Notes under the pieces: model-generated
What the model saw: only the letters and a program-made list of their open reading frames with translations
The model's database searches: none
What the model was told of the DNA's origin: nothing
In this document: one piece after another, positions 6,951 through 58,670 of the stretch
Layout of the letters: each line of letters starts with the position of its first letter
How positions within the stretch are numbered: the first letter of the stretch is position 1
Source: Limisphaerales bacterium
GTDB lineage: Bacteria > Verrucomicrobiota > Verrucomicrobiia > Limisphaerales > UBA11358
DNA length: 64,000 bases
NCBI GenBank assembly: GCA_003161635.1
Contig: PMOA01000050.1
Span: 3,091-67,090, forward strand
Reading direction: 5' to 3'
Made by a program: the position numbers and the translations under genes

Positions 6951-9026
6951 CTACGCCATTTTCGCCGCCAACTCGCGCGCCTGCAGGATCAAATCGAGAT
7001 CGTCAGCCAGATTGCCGAAACGGAATTTCGGCAAACCGCTTTGCTGCTGACCGAGCAACTCGCCCGGCCCGCGCAATTTCAAGTCCGTCTCCGCGATGCG
7101 AAAACCATCGTTCGTTTCCTCCAGCACTTTCAAGCGTTCATTCGCCCCGGCAGTTTCCGCGTCGGAAACCAAAATGCAATACGACTCATGTGCGCCGCGT
7201 CCGATGCGCCCGCGCAACTGGTGAAGTTGTGCCAGCCCGAACGCCTCGGCGTTTTCGACGAGCATGACCGTGGCGTTCGGCACATCCACGCCGACCTCGA
7301 TGAGCGAAGTCGCGAGCAATGCGTTCACCCCGCCGGCACGAAATTCCGTCATTACCTCGTCTTTTTCGCGGCTCTTTAATCGCCCGTGCAGCAACCCGAC
7401 GCGAAATGGCGCAAGCAAAGTTTTCAAATTTTCAAATTCTTCCGTCACCGCTTTCAAACCTTTCCCGCCCGATTCTTCGACGCGAGGATAAACCACATAA
7501 GCCTGTCGCCCGGCGGCGAGTTGTTCGCGGATAAACTCCCAAACCTTCGGCAATTTGTCAGCCGTGCGGATGAACGTTTTGATTTGGCCGCGGCCACCGG
7601 GCAATTCGTCAATCACCGACACCTCGAGGTCGCCGTAAAGCGTGAGGCCGAGCGTGCGCGGAATCGGCGTCGCCGTCATCACGAGCAAATGCGGATAACG
7701 ACCTTTGCGCACAAGCTGTTCGCGCTGTGCCACACCAAACTTGTGCTGCTCGTCAATGATGACCAGGCCCAGCTTCGGCAGATCAAAACCGGACTCAATG
7801 AGCGCGTGGGTGCCGATGAACAAGGTTGAAGGTTGCGTGTTGCGTGTTGCGTGATTCGCGCACGCCGTTCGTTGGACGTTGGACGTTCGATGTTCGATGT
7901 TCGATGTTTTCCTGTTCCCCGTTTGCAACTCGACTTTGACTTCCAGTGGTTCAAACCACCTCTGAAAATTGGTGTAGTGCTGTTCCGCCAGAATTTCCGT
8001 CGGGGCCATGAGCGCGACATTAAAGCCGCTTTCCAACGCCATCAGCGCCGTGCAAGCAGCCACGGCGGTTTTGCCCGAACCGACATCGCCTTGCAGCAAC
8101 CGCCGCATCGGATGCGCGCCGCCCATGTCCTTGCGGATTTCGCGCAGCACTTTCGTTTGCGCATCGGTAAGCTTGAAGCCGAGCCGGGCAAGAAACGGTT
8201 TGATGAGGCGATTGTTGCCGCCGCACGGCAGCGCCGCTGCGTGCGATTCAAATTTTTTCCGCCGCTTTTGGATTTGAACCTGCAATTCAATGAACTCGTC
8301 CAGCGCCAGCCGCCGGCGCGCAATTTCCACATCGGTCAGTTCTTCGGGGAAATGAATCATTCGAACCGCATTGGCGCGGCTTGGAAATGTAGCGGCGACT
8401 CGGGAGAGCGCCGCCATCTTTTCTTCCACTGCATTCCACTCAGGGAAATTGGCCGCGCTCTCACGAGACGCGGCTACAAACCTTTCCAGCGTGCGCCAGA
8501 TCAGCCCGCGCAGCCAGCGTTGCGGCAGGCCATCAGTGAGCGGATACACGGGCGCGATGCGGTTGATGTGGATGAAGCTTTCCTCGCCGCCTTCGATGAC
8601 TTCGGTTTCGGGATGAGTCATCACGCGCGGTTTGGTTTCGCTCAATTTGCCGTAAACAAAAACCTCGTCGCCCATGGCAAAATAATTTTGCATGAACGGC
8701 AGGTTCCACCAGCGGCAATGCAACCGCGCCGAGCCGTCGTCGAGAATGATTTCAAAAACAGACTTGTCGCCGCCGCGAAAACGCCTCAGGCCGGATGCGA
8801 CAATCGTGCCGCGCGCCGTGGCCGGTTCATCCTTCGTGAGTTCGGCGATTTTGCGGAAATGCCGGCGGTCTTCATAACGCCGCGGGCAGTGCAACAACAA
8901 ATCCTCGATGTTATGGATGTCGAGGCGCGCAAGTTGAGCCGCGCGTTCCGCGCCGACACCCCAGAGCGAACCCACCAGAGCGGCGAGCGGAGAAGTCTTG
9001 GATTCCGACGGCGACATTGGCCGCAC
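6951..9026 (-). CDS. recG: ATP-dependent DNA helicase RecG
   Basis: Wedge domain, GDVGSGKT (motif I), IIDEQHKFG (motif II), MTATPIPRT and QLHQLRGRIGRG (motif VI). The start is GTG 9026 or ATG 9017. The gene contains an in-frame repeat-encoded segment (see findings). Confidence 0.93.
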   Translation of the reverse strand: MRPMSPSESKTSPLAALVGSLWGVGAERAAQLARLDIHNIEDLLLHCPRRYEDRRHFRKIAELTKDEPATARGTIVASGLRRFRGGDKSVFEIILDDGSARLHCRWWNLPFMQNYFAMGDEVFVYGKLSETKPRVMTHPETEVIEGGEESFIHINRIAPVYPLTDGLPQRWLRGLIWRTLERFVAASRESAANFPEWNAVEEKMAALSRVAATFPSRANAVRMIHFPEELTDVEIARRRLALDEFIELQVQIQKRRKKFESHAAALPCGGNNRLIKPFLARLGFKLTDAQTKVLREIRKDMGGAHPMRRLLQGDVGSGKTAVAACTALMALESGFNVALMAPTEILAEQHYTNFQRWFEPLEVKVELQTGNRKTSNIEHRTSNVQRTACANHATRNTQPSTLFIGTHALIESGFDLPKLGLVIIDEQHKFGVAQREQLVRKGRYPHLLVMTATPIPRTLGLTLYGDLEVSVIDELPGGRGQIKTFIRTADKLPKVWEFIREQLAAGRQAYVVYPRVEESGGKGLKAVTEEFENLKTLLAPFRVGLLHGRLKSREKDEVMTEFRAGGVNALLATSLIEVGVDVPNATVMLVENAEAFGLAQLHQLRGRIGRGAHESYCILVSDAETAGANERLKVLEETNDGFRIAETDLKLRGPGELLGQQQSGLPKFRFGNLADDLDLILQARELAAKMA
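7825..7908. repeat. two heptanucleotide tandem arrays inside recG
   Basis: 7825-7852 holds GTTGAAG plus GTTGCGT x3. 7871-7905 holds GTTGGAC x2 plus GTTCGAT x3. An 18-nt spacer separates them. Confidence 0.9.
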
Positions 9027-9065
9027 GATACAAACCGTTCACCGCCGCTTCAACGGGAAAGCAGT

Positions 9066-9119
9066 GTTGGAGTTCAAGCTTTAGCTTGTTCGGGGACACG
9101 CTGAAGCGTGAACTCCAAC
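9066..9119. repeat. palindromic intergenic element
   Basis: GTTGGAGTTCA ... TGAACTCCAAC are 11-bp arms around an internally self-complementary core. It lies between the recG start and the 3' end of the next gene. Confidence 0.6.
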
Positions 9120-10170: not shown

Positions 10171-10185
10171 TGAACTGTAATGTAT
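10165..10185. promoter_or_regulatory. candidate PadR operator palindrome
   Basis: ATACATT-GAACTGT-AATGTAT has 7-bp perfect arms. The arms contain the start codons of both divergent genes (CAT 10168-10170 and ATG 10184-10186). Confidence 0.4.
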
Positions 10186-11947
10186 GTCAACAGAAAAATT
10201 GCGCTCAAAAACATTGGCGGCTATTTTTCACACGGTGTCCGAACCGAAAACCAAACCTGTACCCGCGCCGCTGTGGTTGCTCGTGCGCGTCAACGCGCTT
10301 CAAAGCTGGCGGCGGCTTTTGTCCGTGCGCGATCAATCGCGGTTGCTTACCGGCATCATCGCGCTGTTCCTGGCCGGTTATCTCGTCGTGTCGTTCGGGC
10401 TGTTCTATCACGGGCTGAGATTCATAGCGAAATTTCCGGGCCTGGGTGCGGTGCTTACGGAGCGGCTGATGTATGTGTTGTTCGCATTTTTGTTCGCGCT
10501 GCTGCTGTTGAGCAACCTCATCATCGGCTACACCAATTTGTTCCGCAATCGGGAGACGGCGTTTCTGCTGACGCTGCCGGTTCCGACCCAGACTATTTTC
10601 CGCTGGAAATTCATCGAATCCACGGTGCTGGCGTCGTGGGCGTTTGTTTTTTTGATTGCGCCGTTGCTCGCGGCGTTTGGTTTGTTGCGCGGAGTGCCAT
10701 GGCATTTCTATCCGGTGACGATGGTGCTCATCGCACTGTTTATCGTGCTGCCGGGCGTGCTGGGCGCGGTTCTGGCAATTTGGGTGGGGAGATTTTTGGA
10801 CCGGCGCAGTTTTCAAATCGCCATGATCGGAACGGCCATCGTTTTGCTGGCGGTGGCGGCGTTTTGGTGGAAGGCCCAGCCGGTTGACGACGAGTTGCTC
10901 GACAAGCGCACACTCGAAGCGCTCGATCTGCTGCTCGCCAAGACACGATTCACAATGTTTCCGTTTCTGCCGAGCTACTGGCTGTCGTCGTCCGTGTTGC
11001 AATGGGCCGAAGGCGTCCTGCGCGGCGCGGCATTTTTCACGCTGGTGCTGTTGAGCTACGCGCTGTTTTTCGGCGGAATTGCGTTCACATGGTTTGGCAA
11101 TGTGTTTTACAACACGGCGTCGGCGGTGCAAAGCCGCGCGGGCGGCGGATGGAATTGGTTTCACGCCCGCCAGAACCGCCGGCATTCCGCCGGCTTGCTT
11201 GAAAAAAGCGCGGCGAAATTATCCTGGCTCGACCGCGACACGCGCGCGCTGGCGGTCAAAGACCTGCGGATGTTCTGGCGGGACACCACGCAATGGGGCC
11301 AGTCCGTGATGCTGTTCGGCCTGCTGGGCGTCTATATCATCAACCTGCGCAATTTCACGCACCACTTGACCAGCCCGTTTTGGGTCAACCTGGTCGCATT
11401 TCTGAATCTCGGCGTTTGCTCGTTAAATCTCGCCTCGGTGACGACGCGGTTCGTGTTCCCGCAATTTTCGCTGGAAGGCCGGCGGCTGTGGATCATCGGC
11501 ATGGCGCCGATGGGCATGGCGCGCGTGGTCAAAACCAAGTTCTGGCTGGCCAGCATCTCGTCGCTGTTTGTCACGTCCGGCCTCATCACGCTGTCTTGTT
11601 ATCTGCTCAAGATGAGTTGGGACCGCGTGCTGTTTTTTGCCGCGGTGATTACCGTAATGACGTTCGCACTCAATGGTCTCGCCATCGGACTGGGTGTCCT
11701 TTATCCCAACCTGAAGGAGGCCAACCTGAACAAAATCGTCAGCGGTTTTGGGGGCACGCTCTGCTTCGTGCTGAGTTCGTTTTACATCCTGGCCTCCGTG
11801 CTGTTGCTGGTGTTTGGCGCGGCCGGCCTGCACTCGCGCGCAAGCTGGGCGGCAGAAGGCATCACCGGCTTTGTGCTGCTGTCCGTTTGCATCGGCTGGC
11901 TCCCGTTGAAATTGGGACTGCGGCAATTGAAAAATTTCGAGGCGTGA
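10184..11947 (+). CDS. polytopic membrane protein (putative ABC-exporter-like permease family)
   Basis: 587 aa with at least 12 hydrophobic helices. The N-terminal LWLLVRVNALQSWRRLL motif resembles putative-ABC-exporter domain proteins, but the functional call is weak. Confidence 0.75.
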   Translation: MSTEKLRSKTLAAIFHTVSEPKTKPVPAPLWLLVRVNALQSWRRLLSVRDQSRLLTGIIALFLAGYLVVSFGLFYHGLRFIAKFPGLGAVLTERLMYVLFAFLFALLLLSNLIIGYTNLFRNRETAFLLTLPVPTQTIFRWKFIESTVLASWAFVFLIAPLLAAFGLLRGVPWHFYPVTMVLIALFIVLPGVLGAVLAIWVGRFLDRRSFQIAMIGTAIVLLAVAAFWWKAQPVDDELLDKRTLEALDLLLAKTRFTMFPFLPSYWLSSSVLQWAEGVLRGAAFFTLVLLSYALFFGGIAFTWFGNVFYNTASAVQSRAGGGWNWFHARQNRRHSAGLLEKSAAKLSWLDRDTRALAVKDLRMFWRDTTQWGQSVMLFGLLGVYIINLRNFTHHLTSPFWVNLVAFLNLGVCSLNLASVTTRFVFPQFSLEGRRLWIIGMAPMGMARVVKTKFWLASISSLFVTSGLITLSCYLLKMSWDRVLFFAAVITVMTFALNGLAIGLGVLYPNLKEANLNKIVSGFGGTLCFVLSSFYILASVLLLVFGAAGLHSRASWAAEGITGFVLLSVCIGWLPLKLGLRQLKNFEA

Positions 11948-11954
11948 ATCATCT

Positions 11955-12108
11955 GTAGCAGCCGAGGTAACGAGGCTCATTTCAAATGCAGAAGGCAGAA
12001 TGAAGAATGATGAAGCTATTCCGGGACCGTTTCACGTCAAATAGATGTTTTTTCATTCAGCATTCTTTTTTCATCCTTCAGTTTGAGCCTCCTCACGTCG
12101 GCTCCTAC
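11955..12108. repeat. REP/MITE-like long palindromic element (GTAG...CTAC)
   Basis: GTAGCAGCCGAGGTAACGAGGCTCATTTCAAA ... TTTGAGCCTCCTCACGTCGGCTCCTAC, with a second internal inverted repeat (GAAGGCAGAATGAAGAATGATGAAG / CATTCAGCATTCTTTTTTCATCCTTC). The right end overlaps the coaB stop codon. Confidence 0.8.
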
Positions 12109-12761
12109 GGGGAACGCACAAATTTATCCAACGCTTCAAACAACAACGGCGCACTCGACAGATGCACCACCTTGCCATCCCGCGCCACCAAACCAAAGCC
12201 CTCACCGTAAGCCGGACCGTTCGCAATACACAAATCGGTTGAACATTCGGCGATTTGCCGTTGGGCGGCGCTGATGGCATCGGCGCGCGCGCCGTCCGCC
12301 TCGAATTTCCATCCCACAATTCGCGTTCGCGGAAACCAACCGCGCAGCCCGGCAATGATTTTTGGCGTCGCCACCAGCTCGACGAGCCACTTGCCCTGCC
12401 GCGTGGAAATTTTATTGACCGCCTTGATTTCGGCGAGTTTGCCGGCTTCGTTGGGCGTGAAAATTCTTCCGAAGGCGAAATCGCTGACCGCCGCCGCGTG
12501 AAAAATCGCGTCCACTTTTTTGGACGACACCGCTTTCAGCTTTTCGCGCAGATCAGTCGTCGTGGTGAAAGTCTCCACTCGCTGCGCGCGCCGTTCACCG
12601 CCATGCGTGGCCATGGTGCCAATGAGCAGAATCACCTTGTGGCCGCGCGCCGCCAGAAAATTGGCCAGCTCCGTGCCGAGGCGGCCGGTCGAGAAATTCG
12701 TGAGCCGCCGCACGTCGTCCAGCGGCTCATAAGTGGGTCCGGCGGTGACGATGCAGTTCAT
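12105..12761 (-). CDS. coaB: phosphopantothenate-cysteine ligase domain protein (stand-alone CoaB-like)
   Basis: IVTAGPTYEPLDDVRRLTNFSTGRLG matches the CoaB motif (TAGgT.EpiDpVR.itN.SSGk.G). There is no CoaC flavoprotein domain. Confidence 0.8.
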   Translation of the reverse strand: MNCIVTAGPTYEPLDDVRRLTNFSTGRLGTELANFLAARGHKVILLIGTMATHGGERRAQRVETFTTTTDLREKLKAVSSKKVDAIFHAAAVSDFAFGRIFTPNEAGKLAEIKAVNKISTRQGKWLVELVATPKIIAGLRGWFPRTRIVGWKFEADGARADAISAAQRQIAECSTDLCIANGPAYGEGFGLVARDGKVVHLSSAPLLFEALDKFVRSP

Positions 12762-12820
12762 GCCGCAATGATACGGCGGACGGCGGAGGTAGGCGAGTGC
12801 GATTCAAACCCGTTGATCCT

Positions 12821-16903: not shown

Positions 16904-18298
16904 ATGAAATCAACCTGTTTCAACTGTTCCCGCCGGACGCTCATCCTGGCGTTGCTGTCGGGCACGGCGCTGTTCGGATTTTCACCGGGTGCCCGCGCGG
17001 AATTGTCGTTCATCTTCACCAACTCCACGGCCGCCGCCATGCCGCGCCGCCCGAGCATCATTTTGATTGTCGCCGACGATCTTGGCTACGGTGATTTGAG
17101 CTGCTACGGCCAGACGAAATTCCAGACGCCGAATCTCGACCGGCTCGCCGCCGGGGGCATTCGCTTCACGAGTTACTATGCGGGCGACGCGGTGAGTTCA
17201 CCGTCACGCGCGTCGTTAATGCTGGGCAAGGATTCGGGTCACTTGAAACAGCGCGCCGACGTGGACGTGCCGCTGACGGCGGACGACATCACCGTCGCGC
17301 AAGTGCTCCAGCAATCCGGCTATCATACGGCCTTGATTGGCGAATGGGATTTGGGTGGTGACGGCACGAGTGGCGCACCATGGAACAAGGGTTTTGATGA
17401 ATTCGCCGGTTACTTCGATTCCGCCGATGCAGAAAATTATTACGCCGACTATATCTGGCGGCATGATCCCACGACCGGTTTTCACGGCAGGGAAATGCTG
17501 TATCCGAACACCGGCGAAAAAAAAAGCCAATACCTTCCCGATATATTCACGACAGCAGCGATAAACTTCGTCAAAAATAATCAACCTGACCAGTTCAACC
17601 GCTATCGCCCGTTTTTCCTGCTGCTGAATTACAAAATGCCGGGCGTTGGCAAGGCAGCGGTCCCAACCGACGCGCCGTTCTCCGGCGAATCGTGGCCGCA
17701 GCCGGAAAAAAACCAAGCCGCCATGATTGCGCGGCTCGACGGCTACATCGGGCAACTGCTCGAACAATTGCAAAAGCTCGGCATGACAAACAACACGGTG
17801 ATTTTCTTCACCAGCGACACCGGGCCGCAAACGAACGGCGGCGTTGGTCTAAAATTTTTCCAAAGCGCCGGGCCGTTTCGCGGCATCCGCGGCGACCTTT
17901 ACGACGGCGGCCTGCGAGTGCCAATGATTGTGCATTGGCCGGGTAAAATTCCTGCCGGCCAGGTCAGTGATTTTCCCTGCGCGGCGTGGGATTTTCTGCC
18001 GACGGCGACGGACATTGCCCTGATCCAATCGCCGACGAACATTGACGGCATTTCCATTTTGACGACGCTGTTTAACCAAATCCAAACCAACCGGCATGAG
18101 TCGTTTTATTGGAAGCTCCAAAGTCGCGATGAGGCCCAGGCCGTTCGCATGGGAGATTGGAAGGTTATGCGTTCAAAAGCCGATGCGCCACTGGAACTTT
18201 ACAATCTCAAAACTGATCCGGGCGAAACCAACAACGTCGCAGGTAAAAATCCTGATGTAATCAAAAGGTTCCAGGGCGTCTTGAAAAACAGCCGCTAA
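16904..18298 (+). CDS. arylsulfatase-family sulfatase (Ser-type active-site motif)
   Basis: Signal peptide, IVADDLGYGDLSCYG, and the active-site box SSPSRASLMLG (S-x-P-x-R rather than C-x-P-x-R). Confidence 0.9.
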   Translation: MKSTCFNCSRRTLILALLSGTALFGFSPGARAELSFIFTNSTAAAMPRRPSIILIVADDLGYGDLSCYGQTKFQTPNLDRLAAGGIRFTSYYAGDAVSSPSRASLMLGKDSGHLKQRADVDVPLTADDITVAQVLQQSGYHTALIGEWDLGGDGTSGAPWNKGFDEFAGYFDSADAENYYADYIWRHDPTTGFHGREMLYPNTGEKKSQYLPDIFTTAAINFVKNNQPDQFNRYRPFFLLLNYKMPGVGKAAVPTDAPFSGESWPQPEKNQAAMIARLDGYIGQLLEQLQKLGMTNNTVIFFTSDTGPQTNGGVGLKFFQSAGPFRGIRGDLYDGGLRVPMIVHWPGKIPAGQVSDFPCAAWDFLPTATDIALIQSPTNIDGISILTTLFNQIQTNRHESFYWKLQSRDEAQAVRMGDWKVMRSKADAPLELYNLKTDPGETNNVAGKNPDVIKRFQGVLKNSR

Positions 18299-18462
18299 CG
18301 TGCCGAAGCGCCTGGCAATGGGGCATTCACGTCGCGTTCCTGTTTTTCACGATGGACGGCAAAGCTCATCCACACAATCGCCAGCCCCACGCCCAGCAAA
18401 AACGCCGCCAGTACAAACCACGGCCATCGGTAGCGTTGGGGATTTTCATTCTGGTCGCTCAT
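18295..18462 (-). CDS. small single-pass membrane protein (55 aa)
   Basis: From ATG 18462: MSDQNENPQRYRWPWFVLAAFLLGVGLAIVWMSF. Its stop overlaps the sulfatase stop convergently. Weak support. Confidence 0.4.
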   Translation of the reverse strand: MSDQNENPQRYRWPWFVLAAFLLGVGLAIVWMSFAVHREKQERDVNAPLPGASAR

Positions 18463-18647
18463 GCGGGTTATTGTATCGCCAGTCTGCGGCCACCGCAAAT
18501 CAAGGTGAAGCCGGTTCTCCCCGCCCGGCGTGCCGTCCCGCCCGGCGGGACGGTCTGACCAGCCCTGTTTTCTTTGCCGCGTAAACACGGAACTCCAAAC
18601 GGCTCGACCAACGGAGAATTTAAGCTAGATTAAAAGCCATTGCGTCC

Positions 18648-19964
18648 ATGAACGAAGCCGGACCACCCGCAGACTTGCCATCGCCGACGCCGGTTAAAAC
18701 CGGCGACGACCATCCCTACGCCATTTTCCGGAACCGGGACTTTACCCTGTATTTGATCGGCCGGCTCGTGGCCGTCACCGGCCAGCAAATGTTCACCATA
18801 GCCATCCTCTGGGAAATTTATGAGCGCACCGAGTCGGCACTGGCGCTCGGCCTCGTGGGGCTGATACAAATGATCCCGATGTTTTTGTTCACGCTGCCAG
18901 CGGGGCACGTCGCGGACAATTACAACCGCAAACGGACCGTGGTGCTGATGACGGTGGCCATCGCGACTTCGAGCCTTGGCGTGGCCTTCGTCTCCTGGCG
19001 CCACGCGCCGGTCTCCTGGATTTATTTTTATCTGTTCATCGGCAGCACGGCCAACACGTTCATGCGGGCGGCCAACGCCGCTTATTTGCCGGCGCTGGTA
19101 AGCCGCAAGGAATTTTCGCGCGCGGTGAACTGGAACGCCGGCGCATTTCAACTCTCCTGCATCATCGGCCGGGCGGGCGCGGGCGCCATCATCGCCTGGA
19201 TGGCCGGGCATCATTCGACTTCTCCCGCGGCGTTGGTTTATGTGATCAATACGCTGGCATCATTGGCCTTTTGCGTTCTCATTGGCATGATCCGCCGGCA
19301 ACACACCGTCAAGACCAAGGAACCCATGACGCTCCAGGCGCTGCTGACGGGTTTCAAGTTCGTCTATGCGAGCAAAATTATTTTGGGACTCATCACGCTC
19401 GACATGTTCGCCGTGTTTTTGGGCGGCGCGACGGCGTTGCTGCCGATCTATGCGAAAGATATTTTGTTCGTCGGGCCGACCGGACTCGGGTTTTTGTCGG
19501 CGGCGCTGCCGATGGGCTCCGTGCTCTGCGCGTTCATCTTGAACCACCGGCCGCCGTTGCAAAAAGCCGGGCGCGCGATGCTGTGGGCCGTGGCCGCATT
19601 CGGACTGGCCACGATTGCGTTCGGGTTTTCGACGTGGTTTTGGTTCTCGCTCTTCATGCTGTTCACGTGCGGCGCGGTGGACAACATCAGCGTGGTCGTG
19701 CGGCACACGCTGGTGCAGATGCTCACGCCGGACGACAAACGCGGACGCGTCTCCGCCGTCAACAACCTCTTCATTGGCACGTCGAACGAACTGGGCGAGT
19801 TCGAGTCCGGCTTCGTCGCGCAAATCTTCGGCCCAACCATCGGGAACACCATTGTGATTGGCGCGATGATTTCCGTCGTCTCCGGCGGGGTGGGAACCAT
19901 TCTGACCGTCCTCGCCGTGGCCTGGCTCTGGCCGGAGATCCGGCGTTACGGAAAATTGGCGTAA
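18648..19964 (+). CDS. MFS transporter
   Basis: 438 aa, 12 TM helices, with the N-terminal FRNRDFTLYLIGRLVAVTGQQM motif typical of MFS_1/EntS-like transporters. Confidence 0.85.
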   Translation: MNEAGPPADLPSPTPVKTGDDHPYAIFRNRDFTLYLIGRLVAVTGQQMFTIAILWEIYERTESALALGLVGLIQMIPMFLFTLPAGHVADNYNRKRTVVLMTVAIATSSLGVAFVSWRHAPVSWIYFYLFIGSTANTFMRAANAAYLPALVSRKEFSRAVNWNAGAFQLSCIIGRAGAGAIIAWMAGHHSTSPAALVYVINTLASLAFCVLIGMIRRQHTVKTKEPMTLQALLTGFKFVYASKIILGLITLDMFAVFLGGATALLPIYAKDILFVGPTGLGFLSAALPMGSVLCAFILNHRPPLQKAGRAMLWAVAAFGLATIAFGFSTWFWFSLFMLFTCGAVDNISVVVRHTLVQMLTPDDKRGRVSAVNNLFIGTSNELGEFESGFVAQIFGPTIGNTIVIGAMISVVSGGVGTILTVLAVAWLWPEIRRYGKLA

Positions 19965-20099
19965 AAAATCTTCGCCCTCACCGTCCACGTTCCCGCAATC
20001 GAAACCCGGTCAAATAAACCGAGGACGAAGACGGGAAGGAATCCAATTTTCCGAGTCAACGCGACTTGACGCGGGCGCACGACGGTTTATTGTCGGCGC

Positions 20100-20684
20100 A
20101 TGAAACGAATTTTAATCTGGATTTTTATCCTGGGCATTTCCCTGGCCGCGGCGCGGGCACAGGATGACGCCACCCAGCAGCAAATTAACAAACTCAACGG
20201 CCAGGTCCAGGACCTGCTCGACGCGCAGGCGGTGCAGGCCAAGCGCATCACCGCGCTGGAGAAGGAAATCGGCGAACTGCGCGACAAATCCAGCCAGCCG
20301 GGCGCCACGGACACTGCCAACGCCGATGATTTGAAGAAGCTCGCCGACCAGGTCCAGGAAATTGACAAGAAACGGCAGGCCGACCGGGAATTGATTTTGA
20401 AGGAAATCGGAAAACTCGGCAAAGTCGGCGGTTCGTCTCCGGGACGCAAGCCAACCCCGACAATGACCACAAATTCGGCAACCGGCGGTTCAAACCCAGG
20501 CGGCAAGGAAAACGGTTACGAATACAAAGTTGCGGCAGGCGACACGCTTTCGATCATTGCCAAGGCCTATCGGGATCAAGGCATCAAGGTGACCGCCGAC
20601 CAGATTCAGAAGGTAAATCCGGGTTTGAATCCGAACAGTCTCAAGGTCGGGCAGAAAATTTTCATTCCCGCGCCGGCACCGTAG
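20100..20684 (+). CDS. secreted coiled-coil protein with C-terminal LysM domain
   Basis: Signal peptide, a heptad-rich region, and LysM (YKVAAGDTLSIIAKAY...KVNPGLNPNSLKVGQKIFIP). Confidence 0.85.
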   Translation: MKRILIWIFILGISLAAARAQDDATQQQINKLNGQVQDLLDAQAVQAKRITALEKEIGELRDKSSQPGATDTANADDLKKLADQVQEIDKKRQADRELILKEIGKLGKVGGSSPGRKPTPTMTTNSATGGSNPGGKENGYEYKVAAGDTLSIIAKAYRDQGIKVTADQIQKVNPGLNPNSLKVGQKIFIPAPAP

Positions 20685-20771
20685 GTTCGCGTCTGGCATC
20701 TGGGATTGGGCGTCTGGGGCAACAGGAGTTTTCGAGTCCTTCCCCAAAACCAAGACGCCAGAACCCAGCCC

Positions 20772-21563
20772 CTATCGCATCAGGACAAAAATCGCAATCG
20801 CCAGCGCGATGCGATACCAGCCGAACGCGTTGAAGGTGTGCGTCTGGATGTAGCGCAGCAGCCATTTCACGGCAATGAAGGAAACCACCGACGCAATGAC
20901 GGTCGCCAGCAAAACCATTCTCCAATTTTCATGCGGCGCATTGGCGACGGGATGATGCAACGCCTTGAAAATGGTCAGGCCACCGGCCGCCAGCATGGTC
21001 GGAATGCCGACCAGAAAAGAAAATTCCGTCGCCGCCGGGCGGTTCAAACCGAGCAACAGCGCCAGCAAAATCGTCGAGCCCGAGCGGGACGAACCGGGAA
21101 AAACCGCCGCGATCAACTGGCCGACGGCGACGGCAAAGACGATGGGCCAGGTGATTTCATTGCTCATTTTTTTCCCGCGCAACCACCATTCGATGGCAAG
21201 GAAGGCGACGCCGCCGATAAGCAATGCCCAGGCAATGGGGACCGGATTTTCCTCAAGTCTGAAGCCCTTTTTGACGAGAACGAAACCCACAGCCCCGGTG
21301 ATGACGAAGGCGGTGAGCATTTTCAGCAGGTAATCCTGGGTTTCCTTCTGGCGCCACTCAAAAACGAATTTGTAAATACGCTGGGGAAACAGCGGCAGGA
21401 CAGCGATGACCGCGCCGCATTGGATGACGATGTTGAAGAGGTCGCTTTCGTGGACTTTCAGGAGGTGCTCCGCCAGCAGCAGATGGCCGGTGGATGAAAC
21501 GGGAATGAACTCGGTGATTCCCTCGATGATCCCCAAAATGACAACGGCAATCCAGTCAGGCAT
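20772..21563 (-). CDS. uppP: undecaprenyl-diphosphate phosphatase
   Basis: IIEGITEFIPVSSTGHLLL and PGSSRSGSTI motifs. 263 aa polytopic protein. Confidence 0.95.
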   Translation of the reverse strand: MPDWIAVVILGIIEGITEFIPVSSTGHLLLAEHLLKVHESDLFNIVIQCGAVIAVLPLFPQRIYKFVFEWRQKETQDYLLKMLTAFVITGAVGFVLVKKGFRLEENPVPIAWALLIGGVAFLAIEWWLRGKKMSNEITWPIVFAVAVGQLIAAVFPGSSRSGSTILLALLLGLNRPAATEFSFLVGIPTMLAAGGLTIFKALHHPVANAPHENWRMVLLATVIASVVSFIAVKWLLRYIQTHTFNAFGWYRIALAIAIFVLMR

Positions 21564-56744: not shown

Positions 56745-58670
56745 ATGTCCACCATCCTGACTGCCACTGAACTGACCGTGCGCTACGGCGAGCACGCGGT
56801 GCTCGACCGCGCGACGCTCGCCATTGATGAGGGCGACCGCATCGGACTGGTCGGGCGCAACGGCTGCGGCAAGACGACGTTCGTCCGCATTCTGGCCGGG
56901 CTGCAATCGCCGGACAGCGGCAACGTCACGCGGCGGCGCGAGCTCGTTGTCAGCTACCTGCCGCAGGACTTCATGCTCGACGAGGCGAAGAACGTTCTTG
57001 AAAACATCCGTGACGGTGCGAAGCCGGTGCTCGATTTGATTGCGGAATTTGAATCGCTGCCCGCCGAATCGAAGCGGCATGAGCACTTGGAACATCGCAT
57101 CGCCGCGCTGGAAGGCTGGACGCTGGACCGGCGCATCGAGACCGCGATGTCGCACCTGAATTGTCCCTTCGGCGACCGGCGCATTGACACACTTTCCGGC
57201 GGCGAGAAACGGCGCGTGGCGATGTGCCGCGCCCTGGTTTCGCAGCCTGACCTCCTGATCCTCGACGAGCCGACGAACCATCTAGACCCGGAATCCATCG
57301 AGTGGGTCGCGGAATTTCTCGACGAGTTCCATGGCTCGTTCCTCGTCGTCACGCATGACCGCTACTTTCTCGACCGCGTGGCGAAGCGCATGGTCGAGTT
57401 GTCCGATGGCCGGTTTTTCTGGCACGACGGCAACTATACCGATTACCTGCTGGACAAAGCCGAACGTCAGGCCGCGGACGCGACCGTCGAGCACAAGCGC
57501 CAGATGTTTCTGAAAAAGGAACTGGCCTGGGTGCGACAAGGCCCGCGGGCGCAGCGCAGCAAACAGAAGGACCGTTTCGAGCGTTACTACGATACGGCCG
57601 CGCAGGACGGGCCGGTGATTGAAGAGGAAGTCGAGCTTTGCATCCCGCCGCCGCCGCAACTGGGCAACCGCGTTGTCGAGTTGAGCAATCTCGGCATGGA
57701 CCTCGGCGGGCGCACGTTGTTTCGCGGATTCAATTTCACGTTCGAGAACGGCCAGCGCATCGGCGTCGCCGGGCGGAACGGTCTGGGCAAGACCACGTTG
57801 CTCAAAATCATCATCGGCCAGCTTGCGCCCACGGAGGGGACGGTGAAGACCGGCCAGCTCACGAAGTTCAATTACGTGGACCAGGGCCGGATTCAATTGC
57901 GAGAGGAACGCACGGCGCTGGAGGAGGTCAGCGACGGCACGGAATTTGTCATCTTCGGCGACGGCAAAATTTCGCTGCGCTCCTATCTCAAGCGGTTTTT
58001 GTTCGCCGACGATCGCATCACGACGCAGGTGAAATATCTGAGCGGCGGCGAGCGCAGCCGGCTGTTGCTCGCGCGCATCCTGAAAAACGGCGGCAACTTT
58101 CTGATTCTCGACGAACCGACGAACGATCTCGACCTGCCGACGTTGCGCGTGCTGGAGGAGGCGTTGATCGCGTTCCCCGGTGTCGTGCTCGTGGTGAGCC
58201 ACGACCGCTATTTTCTCAACCGCGTTTGCACCGACGTGCTGGCGTTCGAAGGCGACGGCAAAATCCATCACAGCGTTGGCGACTACGATTATTACCTGGA
58301 AAAGAAACAACGTGCGCTCGTAGCCGCGTCTCGTGAGAGCGCGGCCATTCTCGCAACCAACAAGTCTTCCGCACTCTCACGAGCTGCGGCTACGAAGGCG
58401 ACGAAGACAGCGAAACCGGCCAAACCCCGCAAACTTTCGTTCAAAGAAGCGCGCGAGCTGGAAGGCATGGAGGCGCAAATCCACGGCGTGGATGCGGAAA
58501 TCGTCCGCATCGAAGGCTTGTTCGCCTCGCCGGATTTTCACCGCACGCACGCCACCCAAACCAATCAGCTCACCGCCGACCTCGCCGCCGCGAAGGAAAA
58601 CCTCGCGAAACTCTACGCGCGCTGGGAGGAGTTGGAGGCGATCAAGGCCGCAGCGAAACGGCTCGGCTAA
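56745..58670 (+). CDS. ABC-F family ATPase (Uup-like, C-terminal coiled coil)
   Basis: Two ABC cassettes (GRNGCGKTT / LSGGEKRR / LILDEPTNHLD and GRNGLGKTT / LSGGERSR / LILDEPTNDLD), no TM domain, and a C-terminal helical tail. Confidence 0.95.
   Translation: MSTILTATELTVRYGEHAVLDRATLAIDEGDRIGLVGRNGCGKTTFVRILAGLQSPDSGNVTRRRELVVSYLPQDFMLDEAKNVLENIRDGAKPVLDLIAEFESLPAESKRHEHLEHRIAALEGWTLDRRIETAMSHLNCPFGDRRIDTLSGGEKRRVAMCRALVSQPDLLILDEPTNHLDPESIEWVAEFLDEFHGSFLVVTHDRYFLDRVAKRMVELSDGRFFWHDGNYTDYLLDKAERQAADATVEHKRQMFLKKELAWVRQGPRAQRSKQKDRFERYYDTAAQDGPVIEEEVELCIPPPPQLGNRVVELSNLGMDLGGRTLFRGFNFTFENGQRIGVAGRNGLGKTTLLKIIIGQLAPTEGTVKTGQLTKFNYVDQGRIQLREERTALEEVSDGTEFVIFGDGKISLRSYLKRFLFADDRITTQVKYLSGGERSRLLLARILKNGGNFLILDEPTNDLDLPTLRVLEEALIAFPGVVLVVSHDRYFLNRVCTDVLAFEGDGKIHHSVGDYDYYLEKKQRALVAASRESAAILATNKSSALSRAAATKATKTAKPAKPRKLSFKEARELEGMEAQIHGVDAEIVRIEGLFASPDFHRTHATQTNQLTADLAAAKENLAKLYARWEELEAIKAAAKRLG

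Follow-up and report, generated by a model that had tools for sequence, protein, structure and literature searches.

In-frame heptanucleotide repeat arrays in a hypervariable linker of the RecG helicase of a Limisphaerales bacterium

The recG gene of a Limisphaerales bacterium (assembly GCA_003161635.1, contig PMOA01000050.1; its source is called a soil/freshwater verrucomicrobium) contains a short segment built of heptanucleotide tandem repeats that is translated as part of the RecG protein. This segment is most probably a pair of arrays resembling the short tandemly repeated repetitive (STRR) sequences, placed in a permissive loop of RecG, where slippage or recombination would remodel the repeats and selection would pass only the outcomes that preserve the reading frame. 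In the clade to which the bacterium belongs we observed an excess of repeats with period 7, a hot spot of such repeats at the recG linker, turnover of the linker faster than that of the rest of the gene, linker lengths quantised in steps of 7 amino acids (aa) and strict preservation of the frame. Positions are those of the window, by which we mean the whole stretch of 64,000 nt (64 kb) that was analysed. The recG gene is on the minus strand, and its arrays are quoted in the plus-strand reading unless the coding strand is named. The features of the gene and its linker are the following:

6951-9026, minus strand: recG coding sequence, supported by an intact open reading frame (ORF), Pfam, structure alignments and identical database proteins.
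7824-7916, minus strand: hypervariable linker of 93 nt, residues 371-401, NRKTSNIEHRTSNVQRTACANHATRNTQPST, between the conserved LQTG and LFIGTHAL.
7825-7831: single GTTGAAG unit, CTTCAAC on the coding (minus) strand, from reading of the sequence.
7832-7852: three copies of GTTGCGT, on the coding (minus) strand three copies of ACGCAAC encoding HATRNTQ, from reading of the sequence and Tandem Repeats Finder (TRF).
7853-7870, minus strand: non-repeat spacer of 18 nt, GATTCGCGCACGCCGTTC, between the two arms, from reading of the sequence.
7871-7884: two copies of GTTGGAC, GTCCAAC on the coding (minus) strand, from reading of the sequence and TRF.
7885-7905: three copies of GTTCGAT, running on as GTT to 7908 (3.4 copies), on the coding (minus) strand three copies of ATCGAAC encoding TSNIEHR, from reading of the sequence and TRF.

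Judged by its sequence, the product of 6951-9026 is a RecG helicase with the wedge domain, the two RecA-like domains of helicase superfamily 2 (SF2) and the C-terminal domain. The Pfam domains found were RecG_wedge, DEAD, Helicase_C and RecG_dom3_C. The protein aligned over its full length with RecG of T. maritima (1gm5, E=3e-144) and of E. coli (9wm0, E=7e-134), and in these alignments the helicase motifs GDVGSGKT, DEQH and QLRGRIGRG were conserved and intact. Database proteins that are 100% identical to it bear the name RecG. The ORF starts with GTG at 9026; the database proteins P0001 and P0002 begin at the ATG at 9017, three codons in, and are 688 aa long.

The arrays are translated in frame within recG as ...LQTGNRKTSNIEHRTSNVQRTACANHATRNTQPSTLFIGTHAL..., and a preliminary description of this DNA, made from its letters, had placed them correctly, directly before the (F)IGTHAL motif. 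Measured from 'TG' to three residues before GTHA, the linker has 31 aa in the window and 20 aa in T. maritima (ATTPSEKEKIKSGLRNGQID) and E. coli (KQKGKARLAQQEAIASGQVQ), in agreement with the lengths of about 20 aa for E. coli and about 32 aa for this protein that the same description had given. The 20-aa counterpart is a helix in both structures. The canonical form of this region, a helix of ~20 aa ending in G-x-x-x-(I/V/M) between 'TG' and (I/V)GTHA, was not found in the window, where the linker consists of low-complexity, repeat-coded sequence unrelated to 1gm5 and 9wm0, and the HMMER alignment was gapped at this place. All three arrays were reported by TRF with a 100% match, and the units, copy numbers and extent (7825-7908) proposed for them earlier were the ones that we read. 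A scan for perfect tandem arrays with a period of 6-12 and at least 2.5 copies found no other anywhere in the 64-kb window, so that chance cannot account for three of them lying within 84 nt. The single CTTCAAC unit at 7825-7831 is in our reading what is left of a (CTTCAAC/CCTCAAC)n right arm, present in many relatives and translated there as STFNLQPST or STLNPQPST.

We compared the linker among the best protein matches and in 80 genome loci, from metagenome-assembled genomes (MAGs) labelled Verrucomicrobiota, Verrucomicrobia subdivision 3, Pedosphaera or Limisphaerales; a profile search for more diverse RecG proteins gave mostly the same clade. Contigs L006, L013, L017, L022, L027, L045 and L068, with a recG 68-82% identical, were deposited as 'uncultured Bifidobacteriaceae', 'Acidobacteriaceae', 'Candidatus Acidoferrum' or 'Aquilonibacter' and are probably mislabelled bins. 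In the 120 closest protein clusters (78-100% identity) the linker from QTG to (L/I)x(I/V)GTHAL was never canonical and measured 17-45 aa, and in 79 species-level genome loci (46-89% identity) it measured 11-68 aa. Mean pairwise identity among 71 aligned homologues was 21% in the linker versus 90% in its flanks, taken as 60 residues to either side. In clade members the DNA of the linker visibly consisted of two heptamer arrays flanking a short spacer. Alignment of RecG orthologues, a check that the preliminary description had called for, therefore gave a linker that is hypervariable, built of heptamers in the clade relatives and in frame in every case.

The peptides encoded in the 120 closest clusters were periodic with 7 aa (TSNIQHP/TSNIEHR, STLNPQP/STLDPRP, HASRITH, VESRESR, GRWKMED, DKWQVTS), the period that a 7-nt unit yields on translation of three successive copies. 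Within one linker type the lengths formed a series of 17, 24, 31, 38 and 45 aa, in which each step of 7 aa equals 21 nt or three units; one example is given by P0061 (17 aa), P0005 (24), P0081 (31) and P0046 (38). Other series were 22/29 (P0028 versus P0015; P0051 versus P0010) and 28/35/42. No frameshift at the linker was detected in any of the 79 genome loci or of the ~190 RecG protein clusters, the latter count coming from a database that favours intact ORFs. A change of frame in L074 lies ahead of the linker, between it and Walker A, at the end of its contig; it was likely an assembly error and was not counted. Six distinct strain-level alleles (P0001, P0002 and P0121-P0124) differed by substitutions elsewhere in the gene and had an identical linker.

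The course of this turnover can be followed in L201 and L202, which are ~91-92% identical to the window at the nucleotide level. Both share the 93-nt layout of the window (11-nt lead, 5 units, 18-nt spacer, 4 units, 1 nt), and the three sequences differ in the heptamers that occupy it; the spacer is equal in length (18 nt) and heavily diverged in sequence. The three copies of ACGCAAC in the window match a single GCGCAAC beside CTTYAAC units in L202 (...ACGCGCAAC CTTTAAC...), which indicates that this array of the window was amplified in place; the window's last unit, CTTCAAC, is a remnant of the CTTYAAC array. The shared layout with differing units thus appears to be the signature of gain and loss of resident units in place. 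The canonical linker (LTSDMTPADRNAILRGVGDGGIHLLVGTHA) was kept in L075, L076 and L080 (46-48% identity), and linkers that were non-canonical and free of repeats were found in Akkermansia-like L070, in Limisphaerales chromosomes L071-73, and in L055, L057, L077 and L078. Since distant Verrucomicrobiota have canonical or repeat-free non-canonical linkers, the tolerant loop appears to be older than the repeats. Our inference is that loss of the canonical helix came first and left a permissive loop, into which heptamer arrays moved later, in one subclade.

The repeats were not restricted to recG. We carried out a census of period runs (at least 11 consecutive lag matches, with equal stringency for all periods) in 1.17 Mb of clade loci, sampled at ~20 kb per genome, and in 0.18 Mb of outgroup loci. 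Outside the recG linker the clade loci had 32 period-7 runs per Mb (38 in all), and periods 4-6 and 8-13 gave 0-8.5 runs per Mb each. Another 34 period-7 runs were located within the ~90-nt recG linker. The outgroup loci had one period-7 run. The excess of period 7 is a trait of the whole clade. The arrays were diverse in sequence, with 63 distinct units among 113 arrays, and one unit could be reused within the ~20 kb sampled from a genome, as in L047 (eight arrays, AAATCCG) and L020 (three arrays, CTCCGCA). The eight AAATCCG-family arrays of L047 lie within ~4 kb of one MAG (16995-21070), some of them in long ORFs. An intergenic tract directly after the recG stop in L021 (4680-4890) contains more than 25 tandem heptamers (ATGTTGG, ATGTTGA, ATGTTAG) and also 3.4 copies of TTTCTGC and TATTGGC-like units. 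In the window itself the recG cluster comprises the only perfect period-7 arrays, and a degenerate array is present at 11985-12014; for the window's own genome, support for a dispersed excess of period 7 is indirect and comes from the loci of related genomes.

Arrays read in frame were detected in other core genes as well. In clade loci the Pfam-confirmed hosts were Mfd, DnaK/HSP70, PrmC, a TPR membrane protein and the glycogen debranching enzyme (GDE), and on taxonomically unassigned metagenome contigs with three copies of ACGCAAC they were UvrA, IleRS, LeuRS and a Mur ligase. The mfd gene of the Pedosphaera MAG L020 (231-3893) carries in-frame arrays at four sites, and at one of them the arrays, (GGTTGCA)n...(TGCAACC)n, form an almost perfect inverted pair. 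Two of the four sites bear arrays in several other genomes too (L023, L068, L142, L150), which argues for persistence of arrays at permissive sites. The murD gene of L083 (5450-7084, minus strand), from Thermodesulfovibrionia of the phylum Nitrospirota, has several in-frame heptamer arrays that include ACGCAAC. Its relatives (n=120; P0127-P0246) have a repeat-like hypervariable linker of 9-50 aa just before the GTNGKST P-loop. What was seen in the RecG linker is repeated here in a second phylum.

Three copies of ACGCAAC were found on at least 120 metagenome contigs with a GC content of 0.38-0.71. The idea that ACGCAAC is a special, horizontally spread motif was rejected: scrambled control heptamers in three copies gave 25, 85 and 6 matches in a viral collection versus 13 for ACGCAAC. 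Because scrambled heptamers are as frequent, the sharing of units across taxa represents a base rate and is no sign of transfer. Perfect three-copy arrays of arbitrary heptamers are common on IMG/VR contigs (L205-L217, L218-L333), including giant-virus MAGs, with 6 to 85 contigs per unit.

These observations fit a mechanism in which the RecG stretch from 'TG', in the region of motif Ib, to the strand that precedes motif II would no longer form the canonical helix and would be instead a disordered loop, tolerant of changes in length and sequence. Turnover would proceed by replication slippage or unequal recombination within the arrays, with amplification of neighbouring heptamers. Purifying selection would remove net changes that are not a multiple of 3 nt, and what survives would be steps of three units, or changes in the two arms or the spacer that compensate each other. 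No sequence-specific role would fall to the encoded peptide, and RecG would work despite the loop, not through it.

The preliminary description had left a choice between a slipped-strand on/off switch and a dispersed repeat domesticated as a surface loop. As a switch, recG would be a contingency locus in which the gain or loss of a unit turns the gene off and later back on, with subpopulations of altered recombination or repair as the result. The 7-nt unit lies within the reading frame and is not a multiple of 3, and array content varies between species. When a unit was added to or removed from one array in simulations, whichever of the three it was, RecG ended prematurely at aa 413 or 447, ahead of motif II, so a switch is possible in principle; the gain of a unit in one arm together with a loss in the other kept the frame open. 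We nevertheless consider a switch highly unlikely. The arrays are short (2-3.4 perfect copies) and do not form a long uninterrupted tract, and known 7-bp phase-variable tracts, such as that of H. influenzae hmw, are much longer. The six strain-level alleles showed no copy-number polymorphism, and no out-of-frame allele was found among the loci and clusters described above. Furthermore, like arrays are present in dnaK, ileS, leuS and murD. DnaK, aminoacyl-tRNA synthetases and Mur ligases are essential, and the occurrence of equivalent arrays in their genes makes a switch implausible. That the same kind of repeat is carried in frame in other core genes of the lineage argues instead for tolerated repeat DNA.

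The structure of the linker was addressed with two AlphaFold models, which had a mean pLDDT (predicted local distance difference test) of 46.6 and 60.5; the models were mediocre because the available homologues are 72-92% identical. In the better model residues 375-397 were coil with a pLDDT of 27-41, alongside strands 364-368 and 401-405 with a pLDDT of ~66-81. Such a low-confidence coil between better-predicted strands is consistent with a disordered loop, weakly so when taken alone, and to that extent the modelling, which had been suggested earlier as a check for a tolerated loop, speaks for it. The proposal of a dispersed repeat domesticated as a surface loop was borne out as regards the dispersed in-frame arrays in related genomes and the hypervariable coil; the word 'domesticated' was too strong, as no sign of a gained function was seen.

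In a further reading the peptide, or a hairpin in the mRNA, would have a selected role, for example as a partner-binding linker or a translational pause. The linker stays at one site across the clade, its common lengths cluster at 28-31 aa and hairpins are present in many relatives, all of which would suit such a role. It is very improbable all the same, given that linker identity is 21% and its length varies from 11 to 68 aa, and that between the window, L201 and L202 the spacer peptide changes by substitutions and, in our reading, by apparent compensating 1-nt indels. Moreover, a hairpin is absent in the window and its closest relatives, and the linker has low model confidence and no predicted secondary structure.

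In 17 of the 51 linkers that were folded the RNA was far more stable than shuffled sequences (z < -2, down to -6.8), and the stable linkers had imperfect inverted heptamer arrays as left and right arms (e.g. L005, L014, L026, L035, L037, L039, L053). RNA folding detected no hairpin in the window linker (z = -1.3), where both arms have the same orientation; a hairpin reading of this linker was therefore rejected, and hairpins are real in other lineages. An inverted partner array was present at 23 of the 120 metagenome loci carrying three copies of ACGCAAC. In L036 a second heptamer hairpin insert occurs in recG, at 814-832 and surroundings, in the interdomain region between wedge and helicase (SRLQVAGCKLQVG...TCNLQPST); it is without counterpart in the recG of the window. 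We also observed a 21-nt insert, ACTCCGATAAATCGCGAG plus 3 nt, which by eye is capable of forming a hairpin and which encodes NSDKSR(V/A) when in recG. It was found at L003 11243-11263, L008 11141-11161 and L204 3371-3391 (minus strand), within three different heptamer arrays, namely two unrelated recG linker types and, on an IMG/VR contig, an (AATAGCA)n array outside coding sequence.

The hairpins raise the question of a small selfish palindromic element with heptamer arrays as arms, which would insert in frame or repeatedly replace the linker, in the manner of Rickettsia palindromic elements (RPE) or miniature inverted-repeat transposable elements (MITE). RPE are selfish DNA inserted in frame in protein-coding genes and have a defined consensus of ~100-150 bp. 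Long imperfect hairpins with inverted arms in a third of the folded linkers, the inverted pairs in L020 mfd and at the ACGCAAC loci, unit families that appear genome-specific and recur at several loci, the 21-nt insert in three unrelated arrays and the in-frame presence of arrays in unrelated housekeeping genes (Mfd, DnaK, PrmC, UvrA, IleRS, LeuRS, Mur ligase, GDE) can all be read in favour of such an element. Other data do not fit it: no consensus of element length is conserved among the 113 arrays and their 63 units, the window linker has arms of the same orientation and no hairpin, and where close relatives differ, heptamers already present seem to have been amplified in place. No terminal repeat, shared terminus or duplicated target was seen, and the sharing of units across taxa does not exceed the base rate given by the scrambled controls. 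An origin from a mobile hairpin element is on balance unlikely; it is compatible with the account of tolerated arrays and does not exclude it.

Several points weigh against the account of tolerated, slippage-driven arrays in a loop. The inverted arms in a third of the relatives' linkers, the reuse of one unit at several loci (L047, L020) and the presence of the 21-nt hairpin insert in three different arrays are not explained by slippage alone. The persistence of the length mode at 28-31 aa hints that there could be some constraint on the loop. With the structural models being mediocre, the description of the linker as a disordered surface loop rests mainly on the comparative data. Constancy of the frame was observed in assembled loci and protein clusters, and unit number may vary at low frequency within populations. 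An assembly or sequencing artefact within the repeat was also considered. Short repeats can be mis-assembled, and nothing specific pointed to such an error here. The identical protein is encoded on at least 14 independent contigs from several sources and the same architecture recurs in dozens of independent MAGs, so that independent assemblies effectively refute an artefact and its probability is close to nil.

Small dispersed repeats (SDR) of Nostocaceae reportedly sit within heptamer arrays. It is doubtful, if conceivable, that the arrays and the 21-nt hairpin insert described here are likewise parts of an active, self-propagating STRR- or SDR-like system outside cyanobacteria, in Verrucomicrobiota subdivision 3 and perhaps in Nitrospirota. 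By spreading from locus to locus and settling in frame in the permissive loops of core proteins, such a system would continually remodel these proteins; it would imply an enzyme or a peculiarity of replication specific for 7-nt units.

Other features of the window touch on the repeats. Opposite recG lies one long ORF:

7833-9104, plus strand: antisense ORF of 423 aa, wholly opposite recG, which reads the repeats as ...RSMFDVRCF...

The heptamer units are free of stop codons on both strands, as can be seen directly from the sequence, and no Pfam family was found for this ORF or for the alternative-frame ORF at 7679-8020. We judged the antisense ORF to be spurious; an MFDVR-type peptide on the opposite strand, typical of spurious ORFs on such repeats, had been anticipated, and SMFDVRCF is indeed present. 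Between the convergent genes at 10184-11947 (plus strand) and 12105-12761 (minus strand) there is an imperfect hairpin of ~155 nt at 11953-12110 (minimum free energy -58.7 kcal/mol, z = -6.3), the inner arms of which, 11990-12014 and 12056-12079, carry degenerate heptamers (AATGAAG, 4.3 copies). It may be an intergenic relative of the hairpins with heptamer arms or a bidirectional terminator. Of the remaining period-7 rows of TRF, 57106-57128 is ordinary coding sequence of an ABC-F protein (AALEGWTLDR) and no array, and the rows at 12773, 33492 and 40785, with ~2 copies each, were set aside as probably due to chance.

Non-triplet simple repeats should not last in the coding sequence of core genes, and a whole clade in which recG, mfd, dnaK and further housekeeping genes retain them in frame provides a natural system in which the interplay of slippage-prone DNA and selection on the frame can be measured. 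It also allows the mapping of enzyme sites that tolerate arbitrary inserts, the one in RecG being the helix that lies between motifs Ib and II. In practice, segments of this kind produce long antisense ORFs that are spurious and 'variable regions' of low complexity, and these can lead the annotation, alignment and phylogeny of marker genes astray. We found no account, in the literature searched, of heptamer arrays read in frame within core genes of Verrucomicrobiota or Nitrospirota.

Heptanucleotide repeats are a recognised, poorly understood class of simple sequence repeats (SSR). In PMC4692102 and PMC4679880 they are given as the most abundant class of long SSR in many bacteria, with slippage as the proposed cause (Mrazek 2007, cited through these papers), and the published sets covered there are mainly intergenic and under-represented in coding regions. 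The arrays of the present clade differ in that they persist in frame in core genes and have lengths quantised in three-unit steps. With genes that are phase-variable through SSR, e.g. through the 7-bp repeats of H. influenzae hmw (PMC8262952, PMC2424069) or tetranucleotide tracts, recG shares a non-triplet unit of which a change in copy number would shift the frame. It differs from them in its short tracts, in the lack of copy-number polymorphism among strains and of out-of-frame alleles among those found, and in that the hosts are core cytoplasmic enzymes and not surface or restriction-modification genes. The likeness to RPE consists in short repeat DNA tolerated in frame at apparently permissive sites of unrelated housekeeping proteins, with many copies able to form hairpins; unlike RPE, the heptamer arrays have no consensus beyond the 7-nt periodicity, the copy in the window has no hairpin and growth is apparently by local amplification. 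Mention of RPE is made in PMC1779305 and in PMC10969869, a review of MITE. The 21-nt hairpin-capable insert, embedded in heptamer arrays in three contexts, recalls the very small mobile SDR, of 21-27 nt, of Nostocaceae (Elhai et al. 2008, as cited in PMC5861425), but it occurs only in relatives and not in the window, in three DNA instances only, and in another lineage. The closest likeness in kind is to the STRR of cyanobacteria, with which the arrays share 7-nt units in tandem head-to-tail order, apparently several unit families per genome, many dispersed loci, fast change of length and sequence between close relatives and an origin attributed to polymerase slippage. The difference lies in the host, here Verrucomicrobiota with a parallel in Nitrospirota and not cyanobacteria, Xanthomonas or Beggiatoaceae, and by extending the STRR heptamer families to new phyla these arrays bear on the unsolved origin of such families.

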